A stretch of 60,140 nt of DNA, filler included, from Hausera hauseri (Eukaryota), in NCBI GenBank assembly GCA_046269625.1. It is 11 parts of 11 records of this genome, joined end to end, with 100 filler letters (N's around TTAATTAATTAA, not from the genome) between each part and the next. Parts side by side here need not be neighbours in the genome. Positions count along the whole stretch, not along the records: positions 1 to 7,578 come from JBJURY010005790.1; 10 more parts are not named here. One strand, written 5' to 3'. Position 1 is the stretch's first letter, and the number at the start of each line of letters is the position of its first letter. This document shows, one piece after another, positions 1 through 60,140 of this stretch. The position numbers and the translations under genes were made by a program. Under the pieces are notes generated by a model. It was not told the DNA's origin, made no database searches, and was given only the letters and a program-made list of their open reading frames with translations.

Positions 1-246
1 CCGTGCATTTCTTGGCTTTCGCATTGTATATAATTGAACCAGTCGATTTTCTTTTAAACCCCATTTCAATCCATTTGGTATTTTACTCTCTTTGTCTATT
101 TCTACATAACTTTTATTCTTTAAATTCTCTCCGATCTGGCGATACAAACTCTTGTATAGTAGCTTTAGAACTGTCACACGCTGTTGTAGGAATTCGTCGA
201 TGTCGTATCCGGAACTGGTTGCGGAATTTTTTGCCGTTTCGGCCAT
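1..246 (-). CDS. Partial ORF of unknown function running off the window edge
   Basis: ATG at 246 opens 82 stop-free codons (MAETAKNSATSSGYDIDEFLQQRVTVLKLLYK...). No recognisable motif. Confidence 0.3.
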   Translation of the reverse strand, partial: MAETAKNSATSSGYDIDEFLQQRVTVLKLLYKSLYRQIGENLKNKSYVEIDKESKIPNGLKWGLKENRLVQLYTMRKPRNAR

Positions 247-384
247 ACTTACTCCGCTAAAATAAAAATAATGGTCAGTCCTAATACAGATCATCGTTTT
301 GAAACAAAATATTTTCTTTGTCTGATGATAGGATAAACCGATCTGTAATTGTCAGGTTATGCTATCATAAAGTTCGTCTCGGTG

Positions 385-1655
385 TCATTTATCGCCCTTC
401 CGATTTTTACTGCGCTTATTACAATTTTTGGAAACTAGAGAAATCATCGCCGTTAATATGACAAGAACGAAAATTGACAAACTTGATAGAACTATCGTCG
501 GTAAACCGCTTGGCTCAATAGAACTTTTTGTGGTAAACGTATTTTGAGTACTAATATCTTTATGCCGCATTACCTCAATTTTGTTGTCAAGAGTTCGGAC
601 TGTGAAAGTTTTAGGATTTTCACCCTTCGCGGTAATTCGGAATATGTAATTATGTTGCGGTCGTAATCACTCGCATTCGGTTTCCTGATTATTCTTTCTC
701 AGGACCACGACATGGTGGTGTGCAGGGTGGGACATTCAATTTTGATGTTTAGATTTATCGTTTCTTTAGCGTAAAATAGAATTTTATCACTTTTTGCCAA
801 AATCTTAACTGGTATACGTTCTAGTTCTTTTTCAAGCAGTTCCTTCGAAGTGGCGATCACCGTTGTGGCAGTTGTACTTGAAACTGTAAACAGTTTTCTC
901 GTAGTAGTTGGGAACTGAAGTTTCCATATTCCGATTTTTGGACGGTATCCCCTTAAATACGTGCTTCGCTCTCCGGTGTACGTATTGTACAAATCAAGTT
1001 GCAACTGATACCCTTGTCCTAGTTGTAGTACACAGCACACAGTAGGCTGCCGTCATGCGAGATAACAATACTCCGGGATAGGAATCGAGGCATTCAGTGG
1101 TATAAATCGGACAGAAATTTGTCTGTCTTCAGGCAGTTCCACCTTGGTTTTAATTCGAATACATTGGTTTTTTAAGTACTTGGAAATCCCAATAATGTTA
1201 TAGTCTAAGGGCTTTTTGAATGGGTCAGTGTTTTGGATTATTTCATCCGTCTGGGCTAAATTCGTGTCATTTTGTTGAGGATTTCTTATTGAAAATTCAG
1301 TGATTATGTAGGCTTGATCTCCGGGTTGATTATAATAGAAAATTTGAAATATGCATCCGCAGGCTTGTCCAAAATCTAATTTACAACATTTTCTCTGAGC
1401 TCCGTATGGAAAATCGCATGTTCTCACCGCAGATACAGTTACTAATATTATTTAAAATTTTACATAATTCTGAATAGGTTCGCTTGCTTCAAACCTTGCA
1501 CATGGTTTGCTCCAATCCATATCGTGTACTCTGAGTGACTGTAAGTTCTGGATATCCTTTCGTCTTGCCGCATATTGTAACTTTTCGGTTTGACTTATCG
1601 ATTTTACCTTCGGTATGTACGAAGCGATTAACGATAAGGCGAGGACTATTTGCAC
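385..1655 (-). pseudogene. Putative second type I membrane protein downstream of integrase
   Basis: ORFs 1655-1452, 1427-1053 and 1040-699 share one frame. It starts with hydrophobic VQIVLALSLIASY and has a Cys-rich middle. ORF 570-385 supplies a TM (IVLSSLSIFVLVILTAMISLV) and a basic tail after a frameshift. Confidence 0.6.
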
Positions 1656-1668
1656 ATACGTTATCGGT

Positions 1669-4600
1669 CTAGCCGCTATGGACGATGTTTTTTTTTCTGT
1701 TTGTATGCTTTGATTTTGCTCTGCTAGAACGTAGACTGTAACGTTTACTTGGTCTTATTTCCATTTTAACTACTCTTTGAATCGATATGACCTCCTTTTT
1801 GCCGTTTTTATTTATATAAACAGTGGACGGCGTAGTCTTGGTAACTTTATAAAGTCCTCTACCGGTTCTAGTAATTTTGAGAGATGTGCCTTTCTTGGCC
1901 ACTGATAGTGCATGTAAAACCAATTTCGTGGTTCTAGATTGTATGGTTTAGCCTTTGTGTTATATTGCCTCTTTAATTGTTCCTGGTATTCTTTAGATAA
2001 ATCCTTGGCTATTTCCCAACATTTTTGTAATTTCAATTGTAATACCTCGACAAAATTCTGTTTTAGGTCTTCCGTTCTTGTTGAGTAGGGAATCAACCCT
2101 AAATCTGTGGGTAGTACAGATTCTCTGCCGTAGATTATAAAAACCGGAGTGAATCCTGTTGCGGTATGTGGAATATATTAATGGCAAAATGTGTATCTTC
2201 TAAGAACTCATTCCAATCTTTCTGGTCTTTTGCGACTACTGTCGATAAGATTCGTATAACTGTCGCGTTCATTCGTTCAACCATTCTATTACATTGGGGA
2301 TGATAAGCTGTGGTAGTTAATCGTTCCATTTCGAAAATTTTGGTAATTTTATCGAACACTTCGCTCGTAAAGTTTCTCCCTCGATCTGTAAAAATTTGTT
2401 CAGGTGGCCCGTATCTGCAAATAATCTTCCGAACCACTACTTCTTCCAAGGTCTCAGCCTTTTGGTCTACTAACGCTACAAACTCGATGAAATGAGTCAA
2501 TCGGTCTACACAGGTCAAAATATATTTGTTGTTCTTGTGAGTCGTATGTAATGGTCCTACAATATCCATAAAGATTGCTTGCATTGGTCTATCGGGAACG
2601 TTAATAAGTTTAAGCTCCGCGATGTAGTTTTTCGCTTTTCTTTGTTTGGTGACGCATACTTCACACGCATTCACTTAATTTTTCACGTCGATGTATATGC
2701 TCGGCCAATAATATTTATCTGATATTTTTTCCAATGTCTATTTTCATGACATGTGTCCGGCCAGATATGAATTGTGATTGGCCATGAGCACTCCTGCTTG
2801 TAATCCTTTTGGTATGGCGACTAATTTTTGTCCTTTGCGTTCGTAGTACAACACATTTTCAACGTCTCAACGACGCAGTATTTGTGACAATATCGTCTTT
2901 TCTTTGTTCAGCAGAAATTCTCAATGTCTTATCTAGTCTGTGAGTCTATTGTCTCTATACTAAGTCTTCGAGGTGGGCTTTCCTCATTACCGTAACTGCG
3001 CTTGACTTAGGTTTAAGTCTTGACAATGCATCGGCATCGACATGTTTATTTCCAGGTTTGTACTGGAATTTGATATTATATCGTGAGATTTCCCATATCC
3101 ATCTGTTAAGTCTACAGGTTGGATTATTCGCCCTACACTTTAAGGTTGTAACTGTCTTATGATCATTAACTATTACAATCTTTTGTCCATAGACATACAC
3201 GTTGAAGTGTCGCAGTGCTTCTTTCACTTCAGTCGGGTGTTCCAACTCTTCGTCTTTTCGTTTTTGGGCCAGTTCATATTCGATACCTTCCTTACTGGCG
3301 TCCGTTTTGATTATGAATAGTAGGTTAAAGTCGGGATACATTAAAACGGGCTCACTAGATAGGATCTTTTTTATTTTATCAAAAGCTTTCTGTTCGACAT
3401 CGGTCCATTTCCATATGATCCCTTTTTTAAGTAAGCGGTACAAGGGTGCGTTTATCTCTGAATTGTCCGGCACGTTGGTAGAATAATACCCCATGCAATC
3501 CCATATCTTAATTAATAATGATTTATCTGGCTGCGATCCTCCTTTTCCAACTATATGTGCAAGGTACGACACAGCATTCTAAGCCAATTTGCACTTCTTG
3601 GGATTCAGTTTCAATCCAGCCTGCACCAGTCTCATGAGTGTACCCTCAATGTCCTTCAAATGATCCTCTTCCGTTTTTGATGCAATCATGACGTCGTCCA
3701 AGTAGGCGAATGCGTGTTCCAGTCCCATCAGCATCTTGTTCATCATGCGGGTAAAGATGACTGGTCCGGTAGTTATTCCAAATGGCATAACATTAAATTC
3801 GTATATACCGTTGTGTGTCTTAAACGCCGTCTTATACCGATCTTCCTCCTCTATCTCTACTTGCCAATATCAGGACTGTAAATTAAGGGTGGTGAACCAT
3901 TTAGCTCCAGAGAGTCTATCCAAAGCTTCCTTTACTGATGGTAACGGAAAGGAGTCCTTCATCATAAGTGTACTTAACGCTTGATAGTCGATACAAAATT
4001 GGTGCTTAGTGGTACCTTTTTCCTTAACCATGAGTATCGGTGAATACCAAGATTTGTAGCTTGGTCTAATTATGTCGACCTTTAACATCCGTTCAACTTC
4101 CTTAGTTATTTCTGGCCTTAACGATTGTTAAGGAGGGTACCATTTAGGCATTTTTGATCCTCCAAATTTATTTCGTCGTTCGATCCAGGCCTTTTCTTAA
4201 GTAGGATCGTGAGTCTTATGGTTTTGGTTCGCCCAATATCTTCTTCATCTTTCGCGATAATCGAGCTATAACGACAAAATAAGTCGTAAAATCGGCAATT
4301 TGATTTCGGTGAGAATTTAGTCTCGACGTGGGGCGGAAATTTGGCACCATTATATGGTTTCTTTTCAATGGTAATTGATGATACTCTATACGTGTGTCCC
4401 AAAGTGGTATTGGCATAGAGCTTGATTGGGGTTGGTGCATTATGTGCAATTCTGATTGGCACGCGGCCAGTTGATACTCTGGTCAAGATGTTGCTGTGTG
4501 CAATGTTCGGATTGAGTGATTCTCTCGGCCCGAAATATACCGGCTGGTCGTCATCTTGATGTATTTGGGCGTATATTAATATTTCAATCCTGGGCGGTAT

Positions 4601-5000
4601 AGTTTCATCCACGGGAATCCATACTTTTCCAAATTTTCTGTCTTTAGTGATTTTAACTCCTTTTATTGGGCCAAGTTCTATCAGTTTCCCTGCACTGAAA
4701 TCTATCGCTACGTTTGGCAGTTATCTCAATAGATCACAACCTAATACTACGTCATCCGCTAATTGCTCCATTACTGAGAATTCATGATGAAAAGATTGTC
4801 CCATTATGTGAATTTCCGGTTTCCATCGGAATTTTCTTTTAGACGATTGTCCGAAAACTCCGATACTTCCTGGGTCTGTTGCGGAAGGCGGATATAATTG
4901 TTTTCGTAGGAATTGCCGTATTGAATCATATTTTATCAGTTATATTTCGGATCCTGTGTCTATCAGCGCATAAACTTTCCAATCCTCCAATCGAATTTTT
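1669..5000 (-). pseudogene. pol: pol: aspartic protease, RT, RNase H, integrase (disrupted)
   Basis: ORF fragments 4612-4118 (PR-RT linker), 4088-3579 (RT), 3572-2955 (RT thumb/RNase H), 2674-2135 (integrase core), 2096-1669 (integrase C-terminus). The PR-RT-RH-IN order and motifs are Ty3/Gypsy-like. Confidence 0.93.
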
Positions 5001-5649
5001 GCAAAAGGCCACATGAGGGTGTTGGATCGTGGTCACTTTGTAACTGTTAATGGTAACCTTCGTATTTCCAACGGGTTGGTCGATTAACTGTCTCAGTTCT
5101 CCCATTGTGTACAATTCATTATTCGTACCATTTGTGTTTTCCATTCCTTAATTTTTAACTGGTGGCTGAACATCTTGGTTCTGGAGATTGTGTGCCTCAC
5201 TGCTTCTGTTAAATATTGATTGCGTTTCGTTTGGTCTAGGTACTCTAGGTGAATAGATTATACCGTGATCGTCGATCGTGGGATAAACGGTTTTCCTACC
5301 TTACACAACACCGCATAGTGCTTCGTTCCTTCGTAAGGATCCTTTAAACTAAACGGCTTCCGATAAACGTTTGTCTGGCACGAGCTCATAGTTTGTTTCT
5401 CGCAATCATCATATATAGGTGCCGTTGGCGGCAGTATCGGTAATGGTAGTTTCATAACAGAGTAATTTTTGTGCCTGTGTGACCTAGAGATGACGTCTCC
5501 TGCCTTAAGCTTGTTATTGTCAGAATTATTTCTTCGTGTCTTACTATCTATGTATTTTTGCCCGTAATGGAATATGCGTTTTTTACGTTTTCGATTATGG
5601 TACCCAACGTGTCGTTCCACATCTGGTTTCTATTTACTCTCTTCATAAG

Positions 5650-7578
5650 CCTTTAAGAATTTGCCGAAAGGTGTAATAATAGCCGTTAGAATTTTGCACG
5701 AAAATTCTGTCAAAGTAAATATCTCATATTTATTGATGATTGCTTAAATTATAGATTTTACCAGTTGAATTAAAAAGTATATCGCTAGAATTCCTGACGC
5801 GGCTTGTCCGAATATCAGAAATCTTCCCATATTTTGTACAATATTTCAGCCGTTACCTTTTTATAATAGCCAACACCGGGTAATGACTCCCATTTCGCTT
5901 GTTCTCGCGAATCCTCTAATATTGTGTGCATTGCTCGATTCAGTTTGTGCGTACGCTGACGAGGGAAGGCGAGAAATTGTCTGAACGCCTCTACTCCTTT
6001 TGGTCGGAAAATTCCTTTGGCGACTGTATCTTGAAATTTATCATCAGTTATTCCTTTTATTAAGTTTGTCCCTGTTAATTTGGTAGGTAATATGATAATG
6101 TCGCCGTTTGGTAAACTTACCCAGTCGGTTTCTCTTCGCCTGAACATAGGCTCGCATAAACTGGTTTTACAGTCTTTTAAGATTATCGGTTGAGTAGAAT
6201 TAGCCAATAGTACTCTGGTAATTGGTGTTACTAGACTCGGTACGTCCTGGTATATTACTGGAAGTTCTTGTATACACCTCTTTTCTGACACATTAATAGG
6301 TACGTCCTTCTTTTCACATTCGCAGGTCAATAAAACTTCTCTGGTTACCCGTTCAAAAACACCTACCTTTATTGCAATTATTGGTAATGCTAACTTTGGA
6401 TTGAAATATATTAGGGCCAGCTTAGTTCTCATGATTTCCAAATCCAACTTGCAGTCGTTCGTTATCATTTTATGATATAGTTCGGCTATTCCTGATTGTC
6501 CTTTATAGTAGAAATAGTTGTCTCTGTTTTTCAAGTAATCTTTAATCCGGATGTCCTGAGTAACTAGCTTCAACTATCTGACGTTTATTTCCGTTTCCGC
6601 GACGAAAAATACTTAATAGTTAGTAGCGTACATTATAACGTCACATCTTGTAAGTACATCTTTCTTCACAAACTTTAGTCCGTGGGTATCAGAGATCTGT
6701 ATCGTTGGCGTGGACTGTTCGGCTACATCTTCTCGTGTTTTAGAATGAGTTTTTGTGCTACTTATGTACCGTTTTCCTATCGTCTCAGTGAACTTAAGTT
6801 CTTTAATTCTGATAAAGTTGCAATCGGTCTTGGCTGGGGGTTCCAAAATCACTACAGAACTAGGGAACGGGCATGTGCCATCTTGAATGTGGCAATTATG
6901 GTTCTTGGTGTAAAGTTTAGTAACACTATGGAACATCACCGTTTGTATGCCCATTTCAGTTTCGTAAAAATCTACTACTACGATGTTTGACTCCAATCCT
7001 TTTCCCGTGTCGTATTTTGCACCATGACAATGCCCGGTGTGCATGTCTAGTCTTTCTGCCGCCACTTTATACAATCTTATTATCTTCCCTTGTTGCATTT
7101 CCAGTTTCATGCCGTTCCATTTTATTCTCCCCGTTTTTCTAGCTCGCTTACAATGCCGTCGTTCTAAATTCATTGAATTTGGCTGGGTCGTTGGCTTGAT
7201 TATTAACGAGTGTCCATGTACCCGTCCACAATTAAAAATGCTTTGAGATCGCCACAGCATACATTCTACTCTATCCAACGTGACTAGTTCGCATTGTTGA
7301 TATATGACGTAACTTTTTTCTTTTGTTTCTAATTTGTGTGGTCTCGCATCTTCGCACATTTCCAAGTCCATTAATGGATATTTTTGGCCAAGTCTAAATT
7401 TATCACAATCATATACCGTAACCACACACATTTGTCTGATCAACATCATCACCGTCAAAAAGTTGATTAGCCAGTTCGACTCATTTCCTCTAGGATTTCC
7501 GGTTACATTTCGTAGTAGATCCTTGAATTTATTGTTACCGCAGAAGATTCTATTTTGATCTTCTTCTTGTCTTTCGAA
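5650..7578 (-). pseudogene. Chuvirus/Jingchuvirales-like (class III-type) fusion glycoprotein with internal signal peptide and C-terminal TM
   Basis: ORFs 7458-6613 and 6573-5815 are in one frame with a premature stop. Motifs VYDC..YPLMDLEMC, C...SQSIFNCG..HGHS, CKRARKTG, CHGAKY, LYHKMITNDCKL, CIQELPVIY..TPITRVL. TM segment (G)RFLIFGQAASGILAIYFLIQLVKSII follows a 1-nt frameshift near 5826. Confidence 0.85.

Positions 7579-7678: not shown

Positions 7679-7753
<75 letters not shown>
7679..7753 (+). repeat. (GAT)25 microsatellite
   Basis: Perfect trinucleotide repeat at the contig start. Confidence 0.97.
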
Positions 7754-7855
7754 ATCTTATTTAAAAAATGTTTTTGGAAAACAATTTATAGGTGACAATT
7801 CCATTAGTCGCTCAAAAGTTCAAAGTGCAGAGAATATTCGCTCAAAAATTCCCGG

Positions 7856-8233
7856 TTGTATAATGTTTACAACTTACATTATCTACGCAACGCTATTGAA
7901 TTGCCATTGATGGAAACGATCAGAATCAAACCGGTGAAATATGGTGTATTGGTGAAAAAGCTCGGCGGCGATGATTTGGACACAATGGAATACACAATTA
8001 AAAAAATTGGCAATGATTTGGCATTGAGTAACGATATCCGAGACACACCGTCGATTTTTCTGAAAGGAAATATGGCGAAAAATGTCAGTTCAAATGGCAG
8101 AGAAACCGCAGTAGCAGCAGTTTTTCCACCGGAATGAGATAAAGGCTACCTGACACTGAAGGTCAAAGAATTCAAGGAAAGGAGCGGCGTCAAATCCCCA
8201 GTATGGAACATGGGGAAGTTTACTATGATTTAA
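7856..8233 (+). pseudogene. Small Polinton-associated gene convergent with pPolB (copy A)
   Basis: IKPVKYGVLVKKLGGDDLD..KGNMAKNVS continues past a stop into GYLTLKVKEFKERSGVKSPVWNMGKFTMI. Homologous to 46500-46922. Confidence 0.6.
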
Positions 8234-8449
8234 CTGACTTACTTTGTGTGTTTTGTGATTTCAGATTTTCTACGATCAATAAATAAACGTATTCGTGTTA
8301 CATGTTTTGTTTTCTCGTACAAGGTTATTGTTTTCCCAACAATAATAGGTTAAGTACGTAATAGAAAACAAAACACAAAAGACAATGAACAAAGTACATT
8401 ATTAACATTGAAATAAAACAATGTACGAAAGATAATTGTAAATAATTGT

Positions 8450-11400
8450 CACATTATCCGGACGAGGTTGAATTGCCTGTATTTGTTCTGATCTGAACGT
8501 GTTTTATTTCAACCGCCAATGTCCATACGCCACACTTACTTTCGCTTATTTTCGTTATATGACAAAGTGACTTTCGCACTAGTTATTGTATACAGCTGGT
8601 GCTCAATTGATCGGATGATCGTTTGAAACACAACAGTCACTGATTTTCCTACTTCTGCTGCTGCTGCTGCTGATACTCCATATATACGGTCATAATCACC
8701 GTGGCTGATTCACGTCTGTGTCAGATGGACCCATTTTGCCCGCAATTTCGGTCCACAATCCATCAGAAGACTGTAGCACTTTAGACGTAGAAATATCCAT
8801 TCCCGATACCGGACACGACCTTCACTTTCACCCTTGAAGCGGTCGATTTTATTGGCGATCGCACTGCTGTACAACGGGTAATTCGGTGAGTAGTTGGACG
8901 TGTCCAGTAATCCATATACTGCATTTGCTGCAGTGGTTGTTTGCGATTGACGTTTCTCAGCCGCAGGAAAAACTGTCTGTGTCACCGGCAATTATACTAA
9001 TGTCACAGCCGTCAAACATTTGACGGTAACATGTCACGTCGCGATACTCTAGCTCATACATCCGCAACTTCCTCAGGTCCACTACCATTTGTCCAATGTA
9101 ATTTGGCCGGTCCAGAACGACTTCTTCCCTGTTTAACAGCACCGAAAACAATCCATCTGCAATGTACATTGACCGCCGAAACTATGCCTTGCTAGTATAC
9201 GTAACCAGTCGCTTTTTCGAGTTACATAGAGGCATATAGATCCGCTTTTTCAGATTTTCCACTGTTTTTCCGTACAGGGAATTGTTTTTAAGCTTGTAGT
9301 AGCCCTTTTAGAACTTTATGAAAGCTGCGGCTCGTCTCTCCAAATTTTCATCTATGTACGCCTTGAATATAGGAGCCTGAGGAGATCGGATTTCACGATG
9401 CAGTTGTGTAACGCTTATAGCGAGCTGCATGTAGAACTGTAGCAGATGCCAATGGACCACGTAATTCAACTTCGGTTCATGCGTCATGAGCAGTTTCTTC
9501 ACTTTTGAGCCTGGCGGATATTGGTTAAATGGTGCGACCGATAAATCGTCGAAAACGTCATGCAGCTCATCTGGTACCACAAGATCGAACTTCATCAGGA
9601 TTCCGACTGCGCCTGCCATGTCTGCTCGTGGTAGGTTGACCATTATATCGTCCAGATCTTCTCTGTCGACAGCCCATTGGAATGAACCGTACGACAAGGA
9701 TCGCAAAAGCGCCCAGCTATACGGGTTATTAATATCAATATAAAGCATTGATGTGGTATCGGTAGCACGGACCTAATGCTTGTTGAAAAATGTCATGCCG
9801 TCGCGAATACCAACATCAAACAGCCGGTACATTTCCGGGTCTTGCAGCAGCTCAATGTCTCTATCCAGTGACATTAGAGCCGACGCCCAACCCATTCCCG
9901 GTATGGAATAAAAGTTGAGTGGCTCTAACTTATCTTCGCCAGCGCTTTGGTCCGAAATGCTTCGAAGACGTCGGCTAATAAGTAGACGTCCAGTTTAAAA
10001 TACTGGATCATGTACTCCAACATGTTTCGACAGCCCAGTTCTGTCCACGATTCTTGTGCTCTCCGATATTCGTCTTCTGCGATACCCGTCCATCGCGGCG
10101 GTAATTCCTCTGCAGTACGGAGTCGCTCATATGATGTTGCAAAGTTATACGGAAATATGCCTTTGCGGCGTGAAATATGTGCAGGGAACTGCATCAGTGC
10201 TATCGGCACATCTAGCAATGCATTTACCAGCTTTGCCAATGATTCATTGAGAAATTGCAATGAATCAAGGAAACGTATCTAGAATCGGTTTACACGTGCC
10301 GACAGCGATAGGTATTTTTCCATTCTCGTTGGGATTATGGAGAGTTTCTAGCACGGAAAGCCGTTAATGGTCCATTTGAGAATATGGTGACAGTGATAAC
10401 CTCGGGAATTATGAAAGATCATCGGCAAGAATGGTCGCATTCGCTCTGCTAAATTGAATGAATTGCATGCTGCTCCCAAGTACCGATCGGTGACATGGTT
10501 GTGATCTGGTATGAGCCATTACTGTGCACAAACGGTATTATTTTGTGGCACAGATATCATTCATCGGTTACAGCGAAAAGCAACGGTTGTTATTCGTTTG
10601 CCCAAATCAATGGCTTATTGCAATTGTTGAGATACCATGGCGCCATTTCCGTTTTCACTATAGTTTTCAACTGCTGCAAGAAATTATGTACACAGTTATA
10701 GCCATGGGAAACGTAATACTGCGGTTGTCAGGCGGCTTTTATTGGTACTAGCAACATATCTACGTCAATATGAACGTGCTTTTAATTGTATACACTGTGT
10801 CGTAGTAGAATTGATTTGATATCGGCATACACTACATATGCAGGACTGTCCGCTTTTGACCAGTTACTGAATCTTAACTACTTTTTTACTGGCATACCAT
10901 ACATTGCGGTACCTGAAGAAGTTTGCCTGCACAGCGCCACATGCTTTTCCTATGTCTCATTTGACCTGGATACATGCAGACACACGGGACACCATTTGCA
11001 CCGTATATGCTTTTTGATGAACTGATTATGCACCATGTTCAACAATCTGTCCAAATTGGTCACGACCGTGCAATGAAACTTTTCTTCATTCTGCAACAGC
11101 AACAAATTTACTGGGCAACCAATTGAATTTCGACTGCGGTAAATTATATCCACGTGAGGATTATTGTAAATTTCCTCATTTACCGGTATCTCTACGATTG
11201 TGGTGAACCGGAACACGTTGATTGCCAGTGTCGGTTTACGCCGTTAAAAAGCCAGAATGGTTTTGCATTTTATCGGCATCCAACACTCGTCGTAGTCCAA
11301 TCCTGAGAAATACTTATTGTACTGCTTTGGACAATTTGCATGGTGTCTAGACTCTTGATTATATTTCAATATGGCCAGAATGCTGTAAATAAAGCAGTAT

Positions 11401-11900
11401 TCATCGTTAGTATTTTACACATTCAATACCAACAAAGACTGCTTTAAGAATACAGGTGTCGGTATCAATGAACATCCGGACAGGTATATCATGTCACTCG
11501 TCTTGGACAGAATAAAGCCGAGAGTGACAATCTTTACAATTCGCCAACCACTGCCCTTTTTGATGTAGTTTGCGATTTTTTTGTCAAGCTTTCTACCTAC
11601 ATCAGCAATAAAATCCTCATAGTATTGCATGGATCGATTTGACAGGTACTATTGATTCCTGTCACCCTGCATATTTTCAAATTCTGAAAGTGCATAATAT
11701 TGCACTTGGCAGTGGTGTTGTTGGAATTTGACCACCTCTGATTCCAACGGGTTACGCACATTGGCGGGTATATCGTTCAGTTGCGTTGCTGTATTCGTCG
11801 ACATGCCCACATTCATGTCCACATACGATCTGTTCAAGTCGTATTTGACAGTAACGGGTAGTTCACACTCCTGCTTCTGTTGCTTCTGATTTTTGTTGTT
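8450..11900 (-). mobile_element. Polinton/Maverick-type protein-primed DNA polymerase B, degraded (copy A)
   Basis: KGSGW, endonuclease-VII-like DH.....YLGAAC, exonuclease FHNSRGY, KGIFPY, DVYLLADVFEAFR, YIDINNPY, YYKLKNNSLYGKTVEN, IAGDTDSF. Boundaries approximate. Confidence 0.9.
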
Positions 11901-12208
11901 TTGAAAGTATTCGTCAAGGCTTGCTGATGATTAACGTTTTCTGCTGATTCTTGCTGCGTCCATTAACATTTTCTTTTTGGACCTCTGAAATTGGTTCAAG
12001 TGCTCCTTGTGAATGTTGTAGAATTGTTCGTAGTTGTAGAACAATCGGGACATTCATAGGCCCGTTTACCTTGCACCATTGTGGTTGTTGTTGTAAAATA
12101 GTACTTCTNNNNNNNNNNNNNNNNNNNNNNNNNNNNNNNNNNNNNNNNNNNNTTAATTAATTAANNNNNNNNNNNNNNNNNNNNNNNNNNNNNNNNNNNN
12201 NNNNNNNN

Positions 12209-15200
12209 CTTCTCATGTTTGATTCGTACAGTTTCTTCACTGACCTTAGGCTTCGTTATGTTCTTAATTCCATCTGTATCTTGCTGCTTCTGTGTGTCTT
12301 CCTCTTTTCTATTATTTATCACTTGGTTCAACTGCTCAATAGTTACTTCTCACATTCCTTCGACTGCTTCAGTAACTCTCTTATATACTCCTCTTTTTCA
12401 TGTACTTTCTCTTTCATTTCTTTCATATTATCTACAACTTGTCGTCGGGATTCTATTAATGCTGCTATTAGCTTCTTGATATCTTCTATTTCTCTATCTT
12501 TCTGCTTGGTAACAGTATGGATTTCTTGAATCTTTGCTTCTATGGCTGCTTCGACTTCTCTTTGTTTCTCCCTTATTTCTTGTACCTGTTTGTCTGTCCT
12601 TATTCCCTCAGCTGTGACTTCCCTAGTGATCAAATTTGTAACTATGTTCTGATCTTCTTCTGACAATATCTCAGGACTTCTTATTCTGATTACATTCATT
12701 CGACAGTTTCACATGGGCATTTCCATGGCCATAATCTGTTTATCGTCGCCCTAATTGTTTTTCTTCAGTACCAACAATTCTTTGCTATTCCATTTGATTA
12801 TTTTCCTGCACTTTCTTCTTTCGCTTCTGTCGTAACGTGGCATGTCTTGCTATTTTTCGTTTTTGGTTCTTGGTCAGCCGAGGTATTTGAGTCTCTAAGT
12901 CTGTTCAGTCTTCGAACCATTTCTTCCATATCCGATGATTCTGAGTCTGCCTCATCTACGTCACAACTTTCCTGTTCTTTCTGTGTGCCTTGGTCATTTT
13001 CTTTGCTGCTGTAACTGACGTTCTCGATATTCTAACCTTTTCTTTCTTTCTAGTAACGGAAGACCACTCTCATTTGATGAGCTACTTATCGTGTTTCTTC
13101 TACTTTTCAACTGTTATTTCCTGGTTTCTTCAAATCTTTTTCTGGCTGCTGCTCTAGTTTTCTGGTACGGGGCTTTAGTTTCTGTTCGTGTCTGTTGACT
13201 CTCTATGTTGGACTCGCTCTCTGTTCTGAACTCTGTTTTTCGTGTGCCCTTTGGTAAGACTAGCGGTGGTATGCATAATTTGTATCTGGAGTCGCTCTCA
13301 GTATTGTCGGATAATTCCGTTCTACTTGCTTCGTTTAACCCTTCAGTATCAGTGTTCTCAGGTGGTATGACATATCTAGACCTTCGTATTCTACCTGTAG
13401 TTTCTGGCTGTCATTCTTTAGTAAAAGACCTGTCTTCTCTTCGTAACTGAGTCATTGTAACTTTCGCTGTTTGTCCTGTAAGTTGGTTGGAAATGCGATT
13501 TGACATTTTTCTATGATGTTATAACCAGGAATCCATTTGTTTTGCATTTTAGAACTCCTTTGATGTTGTCGATAACATACTTTATCTCCAGTTTCAAACT
13601 CTTGATAGACAGCTTTGTTATCACTTCTCTCTTTTCTATTCTGGAAGGACTTTCTAACGTTTCGACTCACTTTCATGGTGATTTCATGGAGCTTCTGAAG
13701 TAAATATTGATGGAAATCGACTCCGTGATATTGGACTCTTGGTCGTAATAACATATCCACCGGGAGTATGGGTTCTCTGCCAAAAATCATCTCATAAGGT
13801 GAGAATTTCCTGCTCCCATTTTCCATCATGAGTAGCGTCATGGCAGCCTGATTCAGATCCCATTCGGCTATTTGATCATTTGCGTATTTTGTTATAACGT
13901 CATATACCACTTTGTGTTGGCGTTCATTTACACCATTAGCACCTGGGTTATAGTATGCAGTAGTTATGTGTTTAATCTTTAACTCCTTCAAGGTGTCTAT
14001 CATCGCTTTGTTCACAATTTCGGTGCCGTTATCCGTAATAATTTCTAAAGGGCATACAAAAACAGGTATACATTTTCCCAATAAGATATCTATGATATTC
14101 TCCGATGCTTTATTCCGTAGTGGGTGCAATTCTGTCCAACAACTGTAAATATCGACAATTTGAAGGATGTAGACATTTCCTGATGCAGTTAAAGGGTGTG
14201 GTCCCGATAGATCTAGACTTACTTTCTCGAATGGAAAATGTGCCTGCGTAGGTTCCTGCATGTGGTGTCTTAATATTTCCATATTTCTTAGACAGTTTGT
14301 GATATATTCAGCGATGGTTTTCTGCATTGTTATCTCTGCTATTTCGTTACTTGCTTTCCGTTTCCAAGAACCTTCCTTTATGTCTTGTAGAACCTTCTGT
14401 CTGTGTATATATATTTGTTCTCGTGCGTCCATGTGGGTCATGCGTTTTTCATTTGCTTGCATTTCACCACTCTCTACCAATCTTTGACTCGACTCTGTAG
14501 ACGCTTTCGGTCTTTCTGATTTGGCAACAATGTATCCTTTTTTCAGCGTGATTATCTTTCCAGTGTGGTTAACTACCATGACTGGGATTTCCCACTTTGT
14601 ATTTAACTGCACTATGCCGTGTACGATTTAGAGACCTGGTTCATCTATGACTGTATCGTCTAATGGTTCTACGTTTAGTACGACACCGTCTTTCCAATAT
14701 TCGCTTCGCTTAATACCAGCCATAATGAGGTTGAATTGGGCTTAAGAACTGCCTGCTGTTCGACCCTTATAATGGAAGCAATATGTATATCATCTTGAAG
14801 ATCCACATACTCATCGTTAATTTTTATTTTCTTTAAGTCAAAATATATTTGAGCGATGATAGCACTCCGAAACATATTTTTGACAATAACGAAGGTGTGT
14901 TTCATCGTGTTTTTCCCTATTCTGACTTCAAGAGTGGCTTTTCCTAAAACATGTAAAGTGCTTCTCGAAACGGAACGAAGGTCGATGTCATAAGGCATTA
15001 ATTTTCATTTATTCTTCAGCAATTTATACACTTAATATTGTAATCTGCGCACCCGTGTCTACAAGGCCTCTGGCGCGTGTTTTATCAAAATATACAATGT
15101 AGGAACTTGGATCTGAGGTATAATTGATTTCATAAGTTCTTTTCTTCATAGTCTGAGGAGTATTAGCTCGTTTGATCTTGAATAGATCAGACGAAGTATG

Positions 15201-16284
15201 ATGGTGTAGGATTCGTGCTTGAGTATTTCCGGATTCGTAACAACTTTATTATCTGTGCTCTGTCTTCTTTCTTGTTGACTATATGCTTGGGAGGGGAATC
15301 CTTGAGTTGGTAGATATTAGGTTTTGGCAATCTGGAACTTATTAGTAATGGGTGGGACATTTCATTTTGCTGTGTTCGTCTTTGTCACTCGATAGTCATG
15401 AACCGTCTTTGTCGTAACCGAAGTGGATTCTCCAACTTACACAGATGCTTCCCGTGTTTTGACATCCTCATTCTTACTCTTCTTTTTTGCTATACCATTT
15501 TCTCTGTTATCGTTCTTCTACTGGAGCTATGGTTTGCGTAATTTCTGACTAGAGGTTGTTGTTCTTTCTTCCGAACACTATCCGCATCTGAATATCGACC
15601 CTGTTTGAACACTATCCGCTTATCCCGTTGAGATGACCTTGCTGTATTTCGCTTTCTTTGACATTCCTGACGTATCTTAGCATCTTTCATTTTGTGGACT
15701 TCCTCCTTTCGTGTCCCAATCTGCCAGAGGTTTACTTCGGAGAGGGTCTCTCGTTGCCAGATCTCGCTTGATCTCTATCTTCCGGTATTGGCACAACATT
15801 GTTTACCTTGCAAAACTTCGCAAAGTGTCCACTATTACCACACCTAAAACAGTTTCTCGATTTGACCACGCTCCTTTCGGATTCATTGGTCTGCTCTCGT
15901 CCGGTTCTGCAATTTCTGGCCATGTGACCATAATATCCGCATCTGTAACATTGTATGTCTCTCAGAACTTCGAAAACCATTCTATGACCATGCGCTGGTT
16001 TCACTCTATATCTATCTCGCTCGTGTGTTCTATCATTCTGTTTATGTCTCAGCTGGTCGACTTCCATAGGATCTTCCTGTCTTTCTTCAACCCTATCTCG
16101 CCCCATCCACAAGTTAACTCGCTTTGAAAAGTTTTCTTCGTCCACGGCAATGTGTATGGCTGCATATATGGAAATGGGTTCGTCTTTCATTAATTTTATG
16201 CGTGTCCGCTTACTTCTTTGACCATCCGTGAAAATGGGTATCAATGCTTTGCCTATAGTTTTCGATGTGATATCTTGTGTGTCA
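12209..16284 (-). mobile_element. Ty3/Gypsy derivative with gag, protease and integrase but no RT/RNase H
   Basis: Two CCHC knuckles in 16244-15732, protease GLVDTGA near 15050-15068, PR-RT linker fused to integrase (SLDLSGP, TDNGTE, AYYNPGANGVNER) in ORF 14612-13452, and downstream coiled-coil ORF 12699-12343. Confidence 0.85.
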
Positions 16285-17086: not shown

Positions 17087-17775
17087 CCATTGAGAGTCCG
17101 TCCGATCCGGCGAGGAATTTTGGACGTCGGCTGATCACCGGGGATTAGTTCCCCCCTCCAACCCTCCGGAGTCATCTTAGGAGTGGGAGGACGTTCTGAT
17201 TCATCACGGAAAGGATCTACTCCACTTGGATTTCGGACAAAAAACAACGTATGTAAAGCCGCTTGACTTTTAATATTTTTTACTTTCACTTTAAACTTTT
17301 GTAAATTCTGAACGAACGAAACAGAATTGAGAAATAAAAATACTGTCATTAACACCGTCGGGGGTTAGATAAAGTGCGACAAACGCGAAAAAAACAAACT
17401 TTAAACAAATAAAAATTAGGTTTTCGTAAGTCAGGGACGATCGCACAAGAATAACACAGACAGTGTAAATTCGCCTAATAAACAGGGGATTGAGAGTAAA
17501 TTAGTCTGAAAAAGACAATTGAGCGTAAGTTCTACTGAACTGAGTGTAAGTTTTTCTAAATGAGGGTAAACTCGAGCAGTTGAGTGTAAGCGTGTTTATG
17601 TGAAGGTGGTGTAGACTCGTTCACGACGTGTTGAGGTAGGTTTGTTCACAGAATAGCTGAAGAGTAAGTTTTTTTAAGAAACTGAGGGTAAATTTGCTTG
17701 AATAAAGGGAATTGAGGGTGATCACGAGGAATAAAACAGATTTAAAAACAGATTAAAAAAAACAACTTAATAACC

Positions 17776-19881: not shown

Positions 19882-22211
19882 CTAGAAACAGGGAGTGATG
19901 AGGATGGGTCCCGAGGTCAACTCCCAGGTGTACACACACTGACACCTCCTGACACACCCATACCGCCCACACACACCTACTTTAAATACACCCAAGCACC
20001 GCACAGGAAGCAAACTTTGCTGGCAGTCACAGTCGAGGGAGTCCCACTGGACTTCCTTGTTGACTCAGGAGCCACACAGTCTCTGATACAGTATGCCTGT
20101 CTTCCCCATGCTCCTTCTAGTGGACAGACTGTCCGCTCTACAGGTGCATCTGGAACAACTGTCATAGAATGTGTCACTGCCCCTTTAACACTTACAGACC
20201 CTTTCAGTTATGACACTCTGAAACACCAGTTCTTACATTCAAGATCATGTCCTGTTAATCTTTTAGCACGCGATCTGATTCTGAAAATGAACCTGACCAT
20301 TTCATGTTCACCTGAGGGACTCGTGGTCTCGAGGAACGTTGACACTATGTTCTCTGACGGCCCTGATGTCCTTTACGTGTATGAATGGTTATTGACTGAC
20401 CAAGACTTAAACAAACATCTTATCCAACAGGCAGTACAGAGGGTGTCACCCACCCACACTGTCATGTTCCCTGAACGGCTCCACTGCACAGCACATGTGG
20501 CTCCCAACACCACTGATGACTTAGGCAGTTGGTTTATGCAGACAACACCCACTGGACTACAGATTACAGACATTTGTTGGACTAACACTTGCTGTTTTCT
20601 TCTTGTAGAACTAACCACTGAACAACACGAAGCCTTTACTGTTGAAGGCTCATTTCCACATGTTTCCTTGACACGCTTATCAGATGTCCAGTGGTCACAC
20701 CTAGGTACATCAGCATTGTCTGCCAAAGATGCTTCAGATTGGCAACAAGTTTTTCCAGGCTGTCAGTTCTCTCCTTCTCTCGCCATGTACAAACAGCCAT
20801 TGCATTTCTTCACTCCTACAGCACCACACCTTGAAGTGATTGACAAAACCCCTCTCTGACAACACATGACACTGTTGGCTTTAGACGACTCTCGTTTATC
20901 AGCTGTTCCTACTACACTCTGGGCAAAAACAAAATATGACGTAGGTTTAATACAACATCAAGAACCAATCCACATCACACCCAAATCATCTTATCGCCCA
21001 AAGATAGCACAGTACCCCCTAAAACCAGAAGCAGTGGAAGGAATCACACCTGTTTTTCATTCCTTGTTGGAAGCAGGCGTGATCGTTCCCTGCCCCACTT
21101 CCCCTGTCAGGACCTCCATTTTCCCCGTTAAAAAGATCCGCCCAACACCACCCGATGAATGGCGTTTTGTCCAAGACTTGAGAGCTGTTAACGCAGCTGT
21201 CCAGGCTAGAGCACCGATTGTTCCAAATCCCTATGTCATCTTGTCACAAATTCCGACAGGTTCTACCTATTTCTCAGTTATTGACTTGGCAAATGCTTTC
21301 TTTTCAGTTCCTGTCCACGAGGATAGTCAGTTTTGGTTTGCTTTTGAGTTTTTAGGTAAGTCCTACACTTTCACCCGCCTCTGCCAAGGCTACTGCGAAT
21401 CTCCAACAATCTTTCATGCTGCTCTAAATGACATCTTAGAAAAGTTCACTTTACCACCCACCTGTGCATTGTTACAATATGTTGATGACTTACTTCTGGC
21501 AACGCCAGACCAACACACTTGCGAAACACAAACAATCCGCCTCCTGCAGTTTCTAGCTCAGGAAGGCCACAAAACATCTTTGTCCAAACTGCAGTTTGTT
21601 TTGCCTGAGGTCACTTTTCTGGGACACAAGATCACCGCTAATGGTAGGGAACTTGCTAATACTCGCGTTGCAGCCATCGTTTCCTTGCCTCTGCCAGTCA
21701 CTAAAAAACAGCTAATGTCTTTCTTAGGACTTTGTGGCTATTGCAGACATTTCATTCCAAACTATGCAGAACTAGAGGGTCCGCTTAGATCCATCTGTCA
21801 TGAAAAAGGCCTTCAAATGAGCTCCAAAGTTACCTGGTCTGACTCAGCAGCCTCTGCTTTTGAGACTCTGAAAAGACAACTACAAACAGCACCTACCCTG
21901 GGCATTCCAGATCCACACCGTCCTTTTATCCAGACAGTGGATGAAAAGGGAGGTTGCATGACTTCAGTTTTGCTACAAAAACATGGTGACCGGCTCAAAC
22001 CAGTTGCATATTTTTCAGCAAAACTTGATCCAGTCGCAGCAGGTTTACCTTTATGTTTGCGCGCTGTGGCTGCCGCAGAAAAATCAGTTTTGGCCAGTAG
22101 AGACATTGTGGGATACTCTGATTTGACCTTGCTGGTACCACACTCTGTCACACACATTCTAAACGAACAAAAGACAGCTCACCTGTCTACTGCGCGATGG
22201 TTAAGGTACCA
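19882..22211 (+). CDS. pol: Retroviral Pol (protease, 2H phosphoesterase, RT, connection), truncated by contig end, one internal TGA at 20857
   Basis: Same frame as gag. FLVDSGA, VNLLARDL, LHCT/PHVSL, WRFVQDLRAVN, IDLANAFFS, YVDD. Confidence 0.9.
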
Positions 22212-31556: not shown

Positions 31557-31865
31557 ATCTGTCTTATTCTTGTAAGATTTATTTTCAAGTTGAGGAAGTT
31601 TAAACTTACCGTTTGGTTCGACGTTAGTTATTTTAACTCTAGTTTCCGAATTTGCTCTGTATATAACTCTACGTGTCTGACGTATAGGTGATTTATCCTT
31701 ACCGTTTATTTGGTTGTCAGTATTCGTACTGAATTATCCCTTTAAATTTAAGTCTGATAACTTATATCCCAAAATTTAAAATTTCTCACAATTACTTGGT
31801 GTAGGTGGCGCTGATCGACGGTATGTCGTTACTTGACTCTAATAGTATCTAGCTAGGCACAAACT

Positions 31866-55264: not shown

Positions 55265-58200
55265 CATTTCCATTTAATTCCCTTCTTAAGTAACCGATAT
55301 AAAGGTGCATTTATTTTTGAATTAGCTGACACATAAGTTACATAATATCCTCATAATCCTAGACAGTGCCTTAATTCTTTCAGGTTTTGTGGTTCCATGC
55401 AATCTGATATCTTGTTCAATAATGATTTATCTGGTTTCGATTTTCCTTCCCCAACTATATGGCCAAGGTAGGATACTGAGTTCTGAGCCCATTTTCATTT
55501 CTTTGGATTCAGCTTCAATCCGGCTTGTTCCAGTCTCATTAATGTGTATTCCATATCCTTTAAGTGTTCCTCTTCGGTCCTTAATGTTATCATTACGTCG
55601 TCTAAGTACGCAAAAGCATGGTCCAGTCCCATTAGCATTTTATTCATCATTCTCGTAAATATGGCTGGTCCAGTAGTAATACCGAACGGCATGACGTTAA
55701 ATTTATAAACACCATCGTGTGTTTTGGATGCTATCTTATAACGGTCTTCGTCCTCAATTTTCACCTGCCAATATCCGGATTGTAAGTCCAGAGTGGTAAA
55801 CCATTTTGCTCCTCAGAGTCGGTTTACAGCCTCCTTTACTGACGGTAGTGGTAAGGAATCTTTCATTATAAGATTATTTAAGGCTCTGTAATCGATACAA
55901 AATCGATGTTTTGTGGTACCTTTTTTCTTAACCATCAGGATTGGTGAATACCAAGATCTATAGCTGGGCCTAATTATGTCGGCCTTAAGCATTCGTTCGA
56001 CTTCCGTCGTTATTTCGGGCCTTAGCGAATGTGGCGGAGGGTACCATTTTGGCATTTTCTGATCATCTAAGTCTATTTCTTCATTCGAACCCGGCCTTTT
56101 TTTGAGCGGAATAATTAGCCTTAACGCTTTTGCTCTCCCAATATCTTCTTCGTCCTTGGCAATAATCGATTTGTAACGGCATAATAATTCGTAAAATCGA
56201 CAGTAAAATTCGGGGAAGAACTTAGTTTCGACGTGAGGTGGGAATTCGGCATACTTATAAGGCCTTTCTTCGATAGTTATCGACGACACTATACGTATCT
56301 CTTAGAGTCGTATAAGCGCGAAGCTTGACGGGAGTCTGCGCATTTTTTGCTATTCTGATCGGTACACGACCGGAGTGTACCCTTGTCAGTATGTTATTAA
56401 GTATTATATTCGGATTTAATGTCTCCTTGGTTCGAAATATACCGGTTGATCGTCATCTTGCTGAATTTGTGCGTAAATTATTAATTCTCTTCTTGGTGGA
56501 ATACTTTCATCTACTGGTATCCGTACTTATCCAAATTTTCTATCCTTAGCGTTTTTCACCTTTATTTGGTCTGATTTCTATTAACTTTCCTGTTTGTAGA
56601 TCAATTGCTATATTTGGTAGTCTCTTCAATAGATCGCATCCTAAGACGACGTCGTCGGTTCATTGTTCCATAACTGCAAATTTATGACGAAATTTTTGTT
56701 CAACTATTTGGACTTCTTGGTTCCATTTAAACGTCGGTTTTGACATTTGACCAAAAGCTCCTGTACTTCCTAGGTCTTTTGTAGGTGGTGGATATAATTG
56801 TCCTTTCGGCGTTTGAGGTATTGAATCATTCTTAATGTAAGACATTTCGAATCCTGCATCGATTAAGGCATAAACGTCCCGATCTTCGCTAATGATTTTC
56901 GTGAAGGGTCTTCCTTCTATTATTGTTCCGAAACAGTTTGTTGCTACTTTTGGACGTTTAGTCGCCGATATTTTATGTCCATTGATTCGGGCAATTGTTT
57001 GTCTTAATTCTTCGTTTGGCTTTAACTCGTTGTTTTCAATGCTTAATTTTTCCGTTTCATGTGTACTAATTAATGGTTTTCGATTGTCAGTGTGTAGTTC
57101 GGTATTCTGGAAGGTTTTTAACCTTGGATTGTCCCAAACCGTTGATCTAGTTTTTATATTCCGAGGTTCTCTCGGAGAATACAACATTTTGGGACCATTT
57201 GTGGATTGTCGGTGACACATTTTCCGTAGGACTTTATAGCGTTTCGTTCCTTTATAAGGATCTTGTACATAACTGTAATTTTATAGATTTCCGTCTGATA
57301 TGAACTCATTGACCGTTTATCCAAGTCTTCGTAGACCGGAGCGGTAGGAGGTAGCATAGGCAATGGTGCTTTGATGAGAGTACGTCTTGTGTCTGTTTAT
57401 TCTTGAAAGTACTTCGCCTCCCTTAGGCTCGTCATCATCTGAATTATTTCTTCGTGTATTAGGTTTTGTAAAGTTCTGCTTTCGCAAGAATATAGGCCTT
57501 CCTTTTCGCTTACGATTATAGTAACCGACATGGCGTTTTACATCCGATTTCTATCTATTCTATTCGTATGCCTTTAAGGATTTTCCAAAGGGCGTTATGA
57601 TTGCCGTCAGTATTTTACATGAAAATCCAGTCAACTTAAATATCTCTTATCCATTTATTACTTCTTGGATAACTGCCTTAATCATTTGTATCAAGAAATA
57701 TATCGTCAAAAATCCATATGCGGATTGAACTTAGATCAAAAATCTTCCCCAAATTTTGTATAGTATTTCCGTGGTTACTCGCTGATAATGGTTTACGCCA
57801 AGTAATGATTCCTATTTAGCCTGATATCGGGTATCGTCTACTACAGAAGCCATGGTCCGGTTTAATTCATGTGTCTGCTGTCTAAGTGTGAACATGGGTT
57901 CTCCTAAGCTTGCCTTACAATTCTTAAGAATGGTTGGTTGTGTCGCGTTATCCAACAACACTCTCATTAATGGTCTAGCTAATCTTGGGGTATTCTGATA
58001 AATAACAGGGAGTTCCTGAATGCAGCGTTTTTCCTCCACGTTGATAGATACATCTCTTTTCGCATTCGTAAGTTAACAGTACTTCGCCTGTAACCCGACC
58101 GAAAATTCCTTCTCTCACGGGAATTATTGGAGAAGCCAGTTCTGGGTTGGCATATATCAGAGCCAATTTTGTCCTCATGATTTCGGTATCTAATTTACAG

Positions 58201-60140
58201 TCGTTAGTTATTATTTTGTGGTACAATTCGGCTATTCCGACTTGCCCTTTGTAGTAGAAGTAATCGTCGCTGTTTTTTACATAATCCTTGATTCGGACAT
58301 CCTGCGTTTCTAATTTGTAAGTTTTTGCATTTATTTTCGTTTCTGCGACGAAAAATGCTTTGTAGTTAGTGACGAATATCACTACATCACAACGTGAGAT
58401 CATCTCCTTTTTAATAAATTTCAACTTATACTGATTTGAGATTAATATAGTGGGTGTAGGATGTTCTGATACGTCCTCACGTGTCCTTGAGTTGGCATCC
58501 GATTTATCCACATGTCTTTTTCCTGTAGTCTCATTAAACTTCAGTTCTTTAATTTTAATAAAATTACAACTTATTCCAGAAGGCGGTTCCCATATTATAA
58601 CAGAACTTCTAAAAGCACAGGTTCCGTCTTGTAAATGACACTTCTAATTTTCAGTTTATAACTTGGTGACACTATGGAACATTACTTTCTGTGATCGCAT
58701 TTCCGATTCGTAGAAATCCACGACTACCACATTCGATTGTAATCCCTTTCCAGTATCATATTCTGCTCCGTAACAATGTCCGCTATGCATGTCTAACCTT
58801 CCGGCCACTATCTTGTATGCCCTAATTATCTTTCCGGGTTGCATTTCTAAATCCATATTTTCCCACTGTACCCTTCCAGTCTCCTTAGCTTGTTTGCAAT
58901 GCTGGCGTTCTAAATTCATTGGGATAAGCGGAGTTGTTGGCTTGATTATAGAGGAATGTCCGTGTACTAATCCACAGTGAAAAATGCTACGTGATCGTCT
59001 CAGCATTCATTCCATCTCATCCAACGATATCAGTTCTTGTTGTTGGTACAAGAAATAATTTTTCTCTCTTGTTTCTAACTTGTGTCGTCTGGCATCTTTG
59101 CACACTTCTAAGTCCATCAGGGAATATCTCTGTCCTAATTTAAATTTTTCGCAGTCGTAGACGGTAGCAGCGCTTATATGCTTTACTAACATCATCAAGG
59201 TGAGTAGGCTGATTAACCAATTTGATTCATTTTTCCGGTAGCCAACATCCTCCGTTGTTAGATTACGTAACATATCATCGAGTTTATTACTGGTCTGTCT
59301 ACCTTCTTCCTTGTCGAACAGTCTTGACCAATTTATTTTGCAGGGCAATCTTCTCGCTGCTTTTTGTACTAAACTTATAACTTTATTAATCTCATTCTCT
59401 CGATTAGAGTTGATCTTAATAGCTAAGTATAGTAATACTTTTCTCAATTCCTCGTTGGTGTTCTCTATTCTTTCTCTATCTTTTCGATTACTGATTCATC
59501 GGTTAAGTTACTTTTCGATAGTTTAAAACGTGAACTTCTCATCATACTAGCTGCATAGAAAATTATCTTTTCTCTGTCATCTAGTGTATCACCTCGAAGG
59601 CTCGAATAATTTACAATTCGTATCAAATTCTTCATTAACTCACTTAATTCTTCATTATCTGTGCTGAAAGTCGGAATTAACATTTTTCTTAGTTTTCTAA
59701 TCAATTCTCCATTATAGTCTACTTCTCGCGTTTTCTTATGCCTTCCAACTAGACGTTTTGGCCTTGGCCTTTGGTGGTTATTTCACTCAATGGTACTAAA
59801 TCTATATCGTATTGTTCCTTATCTTTGTCTGTTCGTAAATATTCGAAATACATTGCAGCGTCTCGGACTCCCATAATTTGTCCTACGCATTGTTCCGTCT
59901 TGGCTTTGCGTTTGGCTTCTTCTTTTGTCTGTTCGTTAGCTATTATTGCCACTATTCGATTCGTTTCGTCGGGGATAATCCCGACGTCTATTAATTGTTC
60001 TAAATCATCGAGTATTTTACCTCTAAAGTAAAATCTATAATTTAGCTCGTTTGTTCCGCCATTGTTTAATAATTAGTCTCTTAGATCTTTTACATAGGAA
60101 TGTGTAGTTAACTCCATTCTTTTTCGTCCATCCATTCGGA
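55265..60140 (-). mobile_element. Chuvirus-glycoprotein Ty3/Gypsy element, copy 2
   Basis: Same order as copy 1: upstream coding region, signal peptide plus VYDC (in ORF 59447-59007), glycoprotein fragments to about 57580, PPTAP, protease LIDAG, RT (FCIDYRALN, MPFG, YLDD). Confidence 0.92.
59940..60138 (-). pseudogene. Ubiquitin-like domain within the retroelement's upstream coding region
   Basis: Manual translation RMDGRKRMELTTHSYVKDLRD*LLNNGGTNELNYRFYFRGKILDDLEQLIDVGIIPDETNRIVAII, in frame with ORF 59952-59749. Confidence 0.65.

Follow-up and report, generated by a model that had tools for sequence, protein, structure and literature searches.

A decayed Ty3/gypsy retroelement of Hausera hauseri with a chuvirus-type envelope region ahead of pol and a predicted second membrane protein behind integrase

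A 60,140-nucleotide stretch of Hausera hauseri DNA (GCA_046269625.1; hereafter the window), consisting of 11 short, unrelated contigs joined via 100-base spacers, holds what we read as a decayed genomic copy of a Ty3/gypsy long terminal repeat (LTR) retroelement of the Burro-like, flatworm-type gag-env-pol group. In relatives, the single open reading frame (ORF) of such elements also encodes a second predicted membrane protein behind integrase, and the elements likely form enveloped particles from a polyprotein that is threaded through the endoplasmic reticulum (ER) membrane at two points. To this reading as a whole we assign a probability of roughly 0.78. The env layout of the group is already in print, the window being a broken, divergent addition to it, and it is the second surface protein behind integrase that is under-described.

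Two copies of the element are present. Copy A fills the contig at positions 1-7578 on the minus strand, from env through the second membrane protein. Copy B, which is diverged from it (55265..60140, minus strand), comprises a ubiquitin-like domain (about 60120-59950), a helical region, a signal peptide, env, a transmembrane (TM) helix, a PTAP motif, protease and reverse transcriptase (RT). The order from env to RT is alike in both, at 69-74% nucleotide identity, and env lies upstream of pol in each. The dN/dS comparison between copies that an earlier note on this DNA had proposed gave 0.06 for RT, 0.15 for protease and 0.10 for the env TM plus tail; for env as a whole, pN was 0.17 and pS 0.81, with synonymous sites saturated. 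The second copy thus has the same order and has been under purifying selection. Neither copy has the uninterrupted ORFs used as the inclusion rule in PMC13524379, since both carry stops and frame changes; in copy A, stops are found at 6615, 6576, 5746, 5632, 4942, 4723, 3872, 3581, 2746, 2740 and 2677, together with several frame changes. These broken frames are a property of individual copies and not of the family. Copy A is covered in all of its 30 bins by contigs of a public run, X1; the 13,945 matched pieces are mostly less than 95% alike and therefore represent many diverged copies of the family. All coordinates given below for copy A refer to the minus strand.

The earlier note had reported a chuvirus-type glycoprotein on the same strand 5' of the protease, and the follow-up bears this out. 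The ectodomain (5818..7416) contains in-frame stops at 6615 and 6576, i.e., 2 stops in 587 codons, where shuffling of bases gives 35.9 (for the best of three frames; none of 2000 as low). With stops read as X, it matches the Pfam family PF24664 (Monjiviricetes_fusion) at E 2.3e-27 over profile positions 6-542, and the profile carries on at 542-610 in the TM piece, which lies one frame over (E 6e-10). The motifs named for it are all where they had been placed, with VYDC at 7416-7405, CIQELPVIY at 6276-6250 and PITRVL at 6225-6208, and of the 14 cysteines conserved across a set of 17 retroelement-type and 26 other glycoproteins, all 14 are kept. The matches of the window env include the Hardyhead chuvirus glycoprotein (E 1e-11, 23%); a sequence relative in the PDB was not found. 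The ectodomain is followed, in a different frame, by a TM helix (placed at 5809-5759 and at about 5791-5735) and a weaker amphipathic segment (together 5633..5830; hydropathy 2.32 and 1.35), interrupted by the stop at 5746. Conserved cysteines, a signal peptide and a TM segment, by which gB/chuvirus-type env proteins are recognized, are thus all seen in the window env. The PF24664 match and published AlphaFold work on Smed_errantivirus_3 (PMC13524379) suggest that this env belongs to the class III fusogen family.

An exhaustive search with env against 1.84 billion proteins returned 250 matches, the best of which were long ORFs containing env. Because of this yield, the blanks from word-index searches that started from env, from the second protein or from an env alignment aimed at longer proteins, none of which gave homologues, carry little weight. 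DNA scans gave no match in viral or prokaryote contigs and at least one locus in metagenome contigs. We examined 21 relative rows, comprising the 18 best matches, two longer cluster members and one metagenome locus, with two pairs sharing a 90% cluster. Env and protease stand in one ORF in 14 of the 21 rows, the other 7 ending earlier. RT is reached in 8, a gag CCHC knuckle precedes env in 7, and three rows (P0005, P0020 and L001) run from gag through integrase. Intact relatives therefore encode gag, signal peptide, env, TM helix, protease, RT, RNase H and integrase, in this order, in a single ORF. The proposal that the element is translated as one polyprotein accordingly holds for the intact relatives, and for the window's own family it would be expected.

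In an IQ-TREE phylogeny, which used 25 of 44 env rows after three fragments and 16 stand-alone proteins had been dropped, the window env falls in a clade of 15 (support 98/98) together with 14 envs from retroelement ORFs, outside of which lie stand-alone chuvirus-like G proteins and a BEL/Pao env. FastTree on all 44 rows recovered the same grouping (0.986). The BEL-type match P0053, in which DUF5641 is followed by env, lies outside this clade. These results bear on whether a chuvirus glycoprotein was simply inserted, as an endogenous viral element, beside an ordinary gypsy element. Insertions of chuvirus G occur commonly in the genomes of animals (PMC7642597) and no LTR is visible in the window element, both of which would fit an insertion; the one-ORF relatives nonetheless refute it, the identical junction recurs in two diverged copies under selection, the env groups with polyprotein envs and not with stand-alone G, and no repeat bounds env. 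We consider such an insertion extremely improbable, and the view of the earlier note that env belongs to the element stands. Its further suggestion of an undescribed, independently evolved lineage does not, as the gag-env-pol layout has been published (PMC6431247, PMC13524379) and the window env groups with proteins of that kind.

Some relatives carry additional features. P0153 (4844 aa) and P0008 contain up to six protease-like motifs, ankyrin repeats, C2H2 fingers and an extra hydrophobic pair ahead of the last protease before RT. P0005 (HBK71150.1), whose ORF spans gag, env, pol and the second protein in full, appears in the database as a hypothetical protein of a Flavobacteriaceae metagenome-assembled genome and is probably animal DNA binned with a bacterium.

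The predicted signal peptide of env is internal. A signal-peptide-like segment (7417..7476, hydropathy 2.45 over 11 aa) includes NWLINFLTVMMLI at 7476-7438 and is preceded by an open stretch (7477..7578) that the contig end cuts. The earlier note was right that the signal peptide is internal and the frame open; what precedes NWLINF, however, is 34 codons instead of 40, without a Met, and the 'end' is a spacer. The segment is internal in copy B as well. In the relatives, the YDC start was located in 14 rows, at residues 149 to 1365 and always behind a hydrophobic segment, and the signal peptide is therefore internal throughout.

Upstream of env, copy A offers these 34 codons and copy B about 300. 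A profile from five relatives places a ubiquitin-like domain in copy B at E 0.0016, the best of 2004 tiles (Pfam ubiquitin, E 0.027), followed by a helical region before env at the place where four relatives (P0003, P0006, P0016 and P0019) carry a Bcl-2-like domain, which reaches a Pfam Bcl-2 E of 1e-3 in P0006. Elsewhere in the window, two related contigs on the minus strand (22312-24300 and 28616-31733; 55-74% protein identity over several segments) contain a gag with a CCHC knuckle and then a long, helical, broken ORF, and may represent the absent 5' portion of this element or of a related giant one.

Env and protease are separated by a linker (5010..5632) of about 220 codons from the env end to the DTG, so that the earlier placement of the glycoprotein directly 5' of the protease was correct in order and not in adjacency. 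A PTAP motif lies in the linker of both copies (5428-5417 in copy A). YPx[LI], P[TS]AP and PPxY are the three types of retroviral late domain. We looked for them post hoc in 11 of the 21 rows, which are related to one another, after removal of two duplicates from clusters and of any row in which a located TM or a protease was lacking. YPx[LI] occurred in 5 of 11 linkers in comparison to 0.48 expected by shuffling, and any of the three motifs in 6 of 11 in comparison to 0.77 expected (0 of 5000 shuffles).

The linker of copy A opens with a TAG stop (5632-5630), and the same codon right behind the env tail is TAG in copy B. Env could thus end at a genuine stop, with pol made by stop-codon readthrough as in gammaretroviruses. 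That the TAG is common to both copies despite about 30% DNA divergence, and that conserved coding sequence follows it, speaks for readthrough, whereas in run X1 the codon is sense in 11,467 of 11,566 contig depth (99%; 65 contigs), which refutes it for the bulk of the family, and the frames of relatives continue through env into pol. We regard readthrough as very unlikely. Given the 99% sense depth, the TAG is a product of decay, and the frame of the family most likely ran on from env into pol, like that of its relatives.

The pol region follows in the order protease, RT, RNase H, integrase that is characteristic of Ty3/gypsy elements (Metaviridae), which agrees with the earlier assignment. 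The aspartic protease (4652..5008; RVP, E 9e-4; tblastn matches to relatives) has its DTG at 4960, within LIDTG at 4966-4952. The spacer between protease and RT (4200..4650) is 24-26% identical to the same spacer in P0004, P0005 and P0153, had no Pfam match, and occupies a slot called dUTPase-like in Burro. RT and RNase H of Ty3/gypsy type (2958..4127; RVT_1 and RT_RNaseH) contain YLDD at 3704-3693. The best PDB match of the window RT is Ty3 RT (E 3e-56), with retroviral RTs at E 7e-19 and caulimovirus RTs also far below. Integrase (1729..2863; rve, E 1e-12) comprises an H2C2 finger (H..H/C..C at 2776-2654), a core to about 2180 and a C-terminal part ending in RYSLR (1743-1729), and RYPLR or a similar sequence ends this part in relatives.

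The element had been delimited at 2135..7578. It extends further left, past 2135 to base 1, and a second predicted membrane protein had been missed there. The coding signal is continuous from the integrase C-terminus to base 1, and 1697-1 encodes a predicted type I membrane protein. A second signal-peptide-like segment (1608..1664, hydropathy 2.55), with a frame change near 1690 just upstream, is followed by a Cys-rich ectodomain of about 370 codons (499..1607) with stops at 1454, 1055, 701 and 669 and one frame change. Next come a TM helix with basic residues behind it (433..498, hydropathy 2.55 over 19 aa) and a predicted cytoplasmic tail (1..432) with an acidic Tyr motif at 375-358 and stops at 387 and 354. 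The tail is open to the contig end, and the LTR is not reached. The ectodomain has 3 stops in 357 codons in comparison to 19.4 in shuffles, and the frame at 666-1 has 2 in 222 in comparison to 12.8 (0 of 2000 shuffles in either case). Copy A contains no long repeats. A candidate LTR start near base 386 was discarded because the reading frame runs on to base 1 and a long repeat is absent.

All six relatives that reach past integrase (P0004, P0005, P0014, P0153, P0160 and L001) have, in frame, a second segment resembling a signal peptide and, further on, a final hydrophobic stretch, which is weaker in P0014 and terminal in L001. Their post-integrase ectodomains can scarcely be aligned. A motif, C..L.P.T.Y, is common to the second proteins of four relatives, and leave-one-out profiles recovered the relative left out at E 0.0003-0.05. 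The first PDB matches of the four-relative profile are fibronectin type III (FN3) domains, of EphA2 (E 0.034) and Tie2 (E 0.16), so that an FN3-like fold is likely in these four. The window protein has an FN3-like C..L.P...Y.F motif at about 678-640, and such a fold is unproven for it. Tails of 66-115 aa with Tyr motifs are found in the relatives, and a T-x-V end in 2 of 6 (P0153 and P0160); the window's own end is missing. The second protein had no Pfam match. In run X1, summed contig depth over 507-1518, within its ectodomain, was 574-915 in comparison to about 2,000-38,000 in other bins. Contig depth is a poor measure; the lower values may mean that the ectodomain differs more between copies. 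A literature search, to which figures, most supplements and Repbase entries were out of reach, found no paper in which the second protein or late domains of these elements are described.

Several results weigh against the reading given at the outset, or against parts of it. For the window's own family, neither an intact copy nor gag or an LTR was seen, and both contigs stop inside the element. At 29% identity to its nearest relative, the window env forms a long branch. The window RT groups with none of the relatives in an RT tree of 11 rows that lacks named references and leaves the window pair unplaced. The Bcl-2-like profile was not significant on copy B (E 6-10), and the window second protein shows no significant similarity to the second proteins of relatives. 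As to the FN3-like fold, the window motif, in the corresponding position ahead of the TM, is split by a break and at E 1.9 is insignificant alone; the alignment behind the profile was trimmed around a motif picked by eye; L001 and P0014 lack C..L.P.T.Y; the fn3 call in the Atlas features of P0159, at 0.87, is below 0.9 and a lead only; and AlphaFold models of two relatives' post-integrase ectodomains reached a predicted local distance difference test score (pLDDT) of 34 and 37, with no match at E 0.001 in a fold search. The linker motif test, besides being post hoc on related rows, meets a further objection. Tyr-Pro is a typical retroviral protease site, and the YP motifs could be such sites instead of late domains.

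The Burro-like polyprotein that we favor would operate as follows, judging from predicted signal peptides and hydropathy. Gag and the accessory domains would remain cytosolic, and the first internal signal peptide would direct env into the lumen. A single strongly hydrophobic segment follows the env ectodomain (1.9-2.5 over 19 residues, the next reaching 0.3-1.6), and hence the chain would re-enter the cytosol once, leaving protease, RT, RNase H and integrase hanging from the env tail. The element's protease would free the enzymes, and cleavage by signal peptidase would release both env and the second protein. The second signal peptide would start a type I surface protein whose ectodomain is fast-changing and probably fibronectin-III-like; its likely place is the surface of the particle or of the cell, where it would most likely assist the fusogen in attachment or as a receptor mimic. 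In the env-protease linker, PTAP or YPxL motifs may recruit the endosomal sorting complexes required for transport (ESCRT) for budding. Each polyprotein would yield Gag, env, pol and the second protein one-to-one.

Whether the second protein acts on the particle at all can be questioned. It might instead be captured cargo that acts on the host cell, as a receptor mimic or signaling decoy, or a protein swapped between lineages. The barely alignable ectodomains of relatives agree with this, as do their 66-115 aa tails with Tyr motifs, the T-x-V ends of P0153 and P0160, and the tendency of these elements to gather ubiquitin-like, Bcl-2-like and ankyrin cargo. By contrast, 6 of 6 relatives agree in position and topology, C..L.P.T.Y is shared by four, and a single ORF implies one-to-one production with env and integrase. 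We place the cargo explanation at somewhat below even chances. More tentatively still, these elements could represent retrovirus-like agents whose envelope carries two proteins, one a class III fusogen and the other a separate attachment protein of fibronectin-III type that evolves fast, both derived from a flavivirus-style polyprotein with two internal signal peptides, with pol packaged via the env tail and the late-domain signal located in the env-protease linker and not in Gag; we consider this full picture doubtful.

The closest known systems include the giant gypsy elements Burro and GYPSM1 of planarians. Planarian Burro elements, published in 2019, have an in-frame env between gag and pol within one polyprotein, ubiquitin/SUMO-like and BCL2-like domains before env, a protease-RT spacer, a length of 25-30 kb and BIR, MATH and ankyrin cargo (PMC6431247). 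In-frame env between gag and pol is likewise seen in P0005, P0020 and L001, and would apply to the window by extension; shared features are also the ubiquitin-like domain before env in copy B, the protease-RT spacer and, in relative P0153 only, ankyrin cargo. The Burro env, however, was tied by HHpred to gypsy Env, with matches to mononegavirus fusion proteins (PMC6431247), whereas the env described here is of the PF24664 chuvirus type; thus a different fusogen may occupy the slot, or the annotations may disagree. The available text of the review PMC6431247 does not mention a second membrane protein in Burro.

Gag-env-pol Ty3/gypsy elements with gB/chuvirus-type env have been described from flatworms, bryozoans and nematodes (PMC13524379). 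They include the HSV/gB-type GAG-ENV-POL errantiviruses of Platyhelminthes, group C1a, with Smed_errantivirus_1-6 (Chary and Hayashi, eLife, PMC13524379). As in the window, a gB/chuvirus-type env precedes Ty3/gypsy pol there, and the six Smed env rows resemble the window's top matches, by eye only (Smed_3 and P0023; Smed_6 and P0012). Unlike these, the window copy is broken, and its env is only about 29% identical to its nearest database relative. The main text of PMC13524379, as available, mentions none of polyprotein, fused, same ORF or fibronectin, and thus one-ORF translation and a post-integrase membrane protein are not discussed in it; fibronectin is not mentioned in the available text of PMC6431247 either. 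The non-canonical endogenous retroviruses of nematodes (Sacco et al. 2022, as cited in PMC13524379) similarly are Metavirus elements with env before pol. The Anakin BEL/Pao elements of mosquitoes also carry a chuvirus-derived glycoprotein in an LTR retroelement (PMC7642597), with a BEL/Pao pol that is absent from the window element.

If the two-protein picture is true, a fixed second surface protein behind integrase and interchangeable PTAP/YPxL motifs behind env would equip flatworm-type LTR retroelements with a pair for fusion and attachment comparable to that of paramyxoviruses or herpesviruses. Intact, multicopy relatives are present in a laboratory planarian, where this can be searched for. 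The window's own copies are dead and contribute one divergent branch to the group.

Other contigs of the window hold further elements. At 12209-16284 (minus strand), a gag with two CCHC knuckles, a protease and a spacer are followed by an integrase core (13452-14627; rve, E 3e-11). RT was seen neither between protease and this core nor after it, and the arrangement is either an integrase-before-RT order or an internal deletion. At 17746-22211 (plus strand), retrovirus-like gag, pro and pol lie in one frame with single stops between them, at a GC content of 0.46-0.49, above that of the rest. This region looks like a vertebrate retrovirus of the fish type and suggests DNA of a second organism. 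Two related decayed elements at 7679-12108 and 46034-50322 (50-70% protein identity) contain protein-primed polymerase-like sequence and are, we assume, Polinton or adintovirus-like. A 546-codon ORF at 44268-45908 (minus strand), which had no Pfam match, includes three tandem 153-base units, 95% alike, at 44598-45062. Two intron-free ORFs resemble by eye a ubiquitin-conjugating enzyme (38517-39029, plus strand) and a membrane transporter (25697-27223, minus strand).

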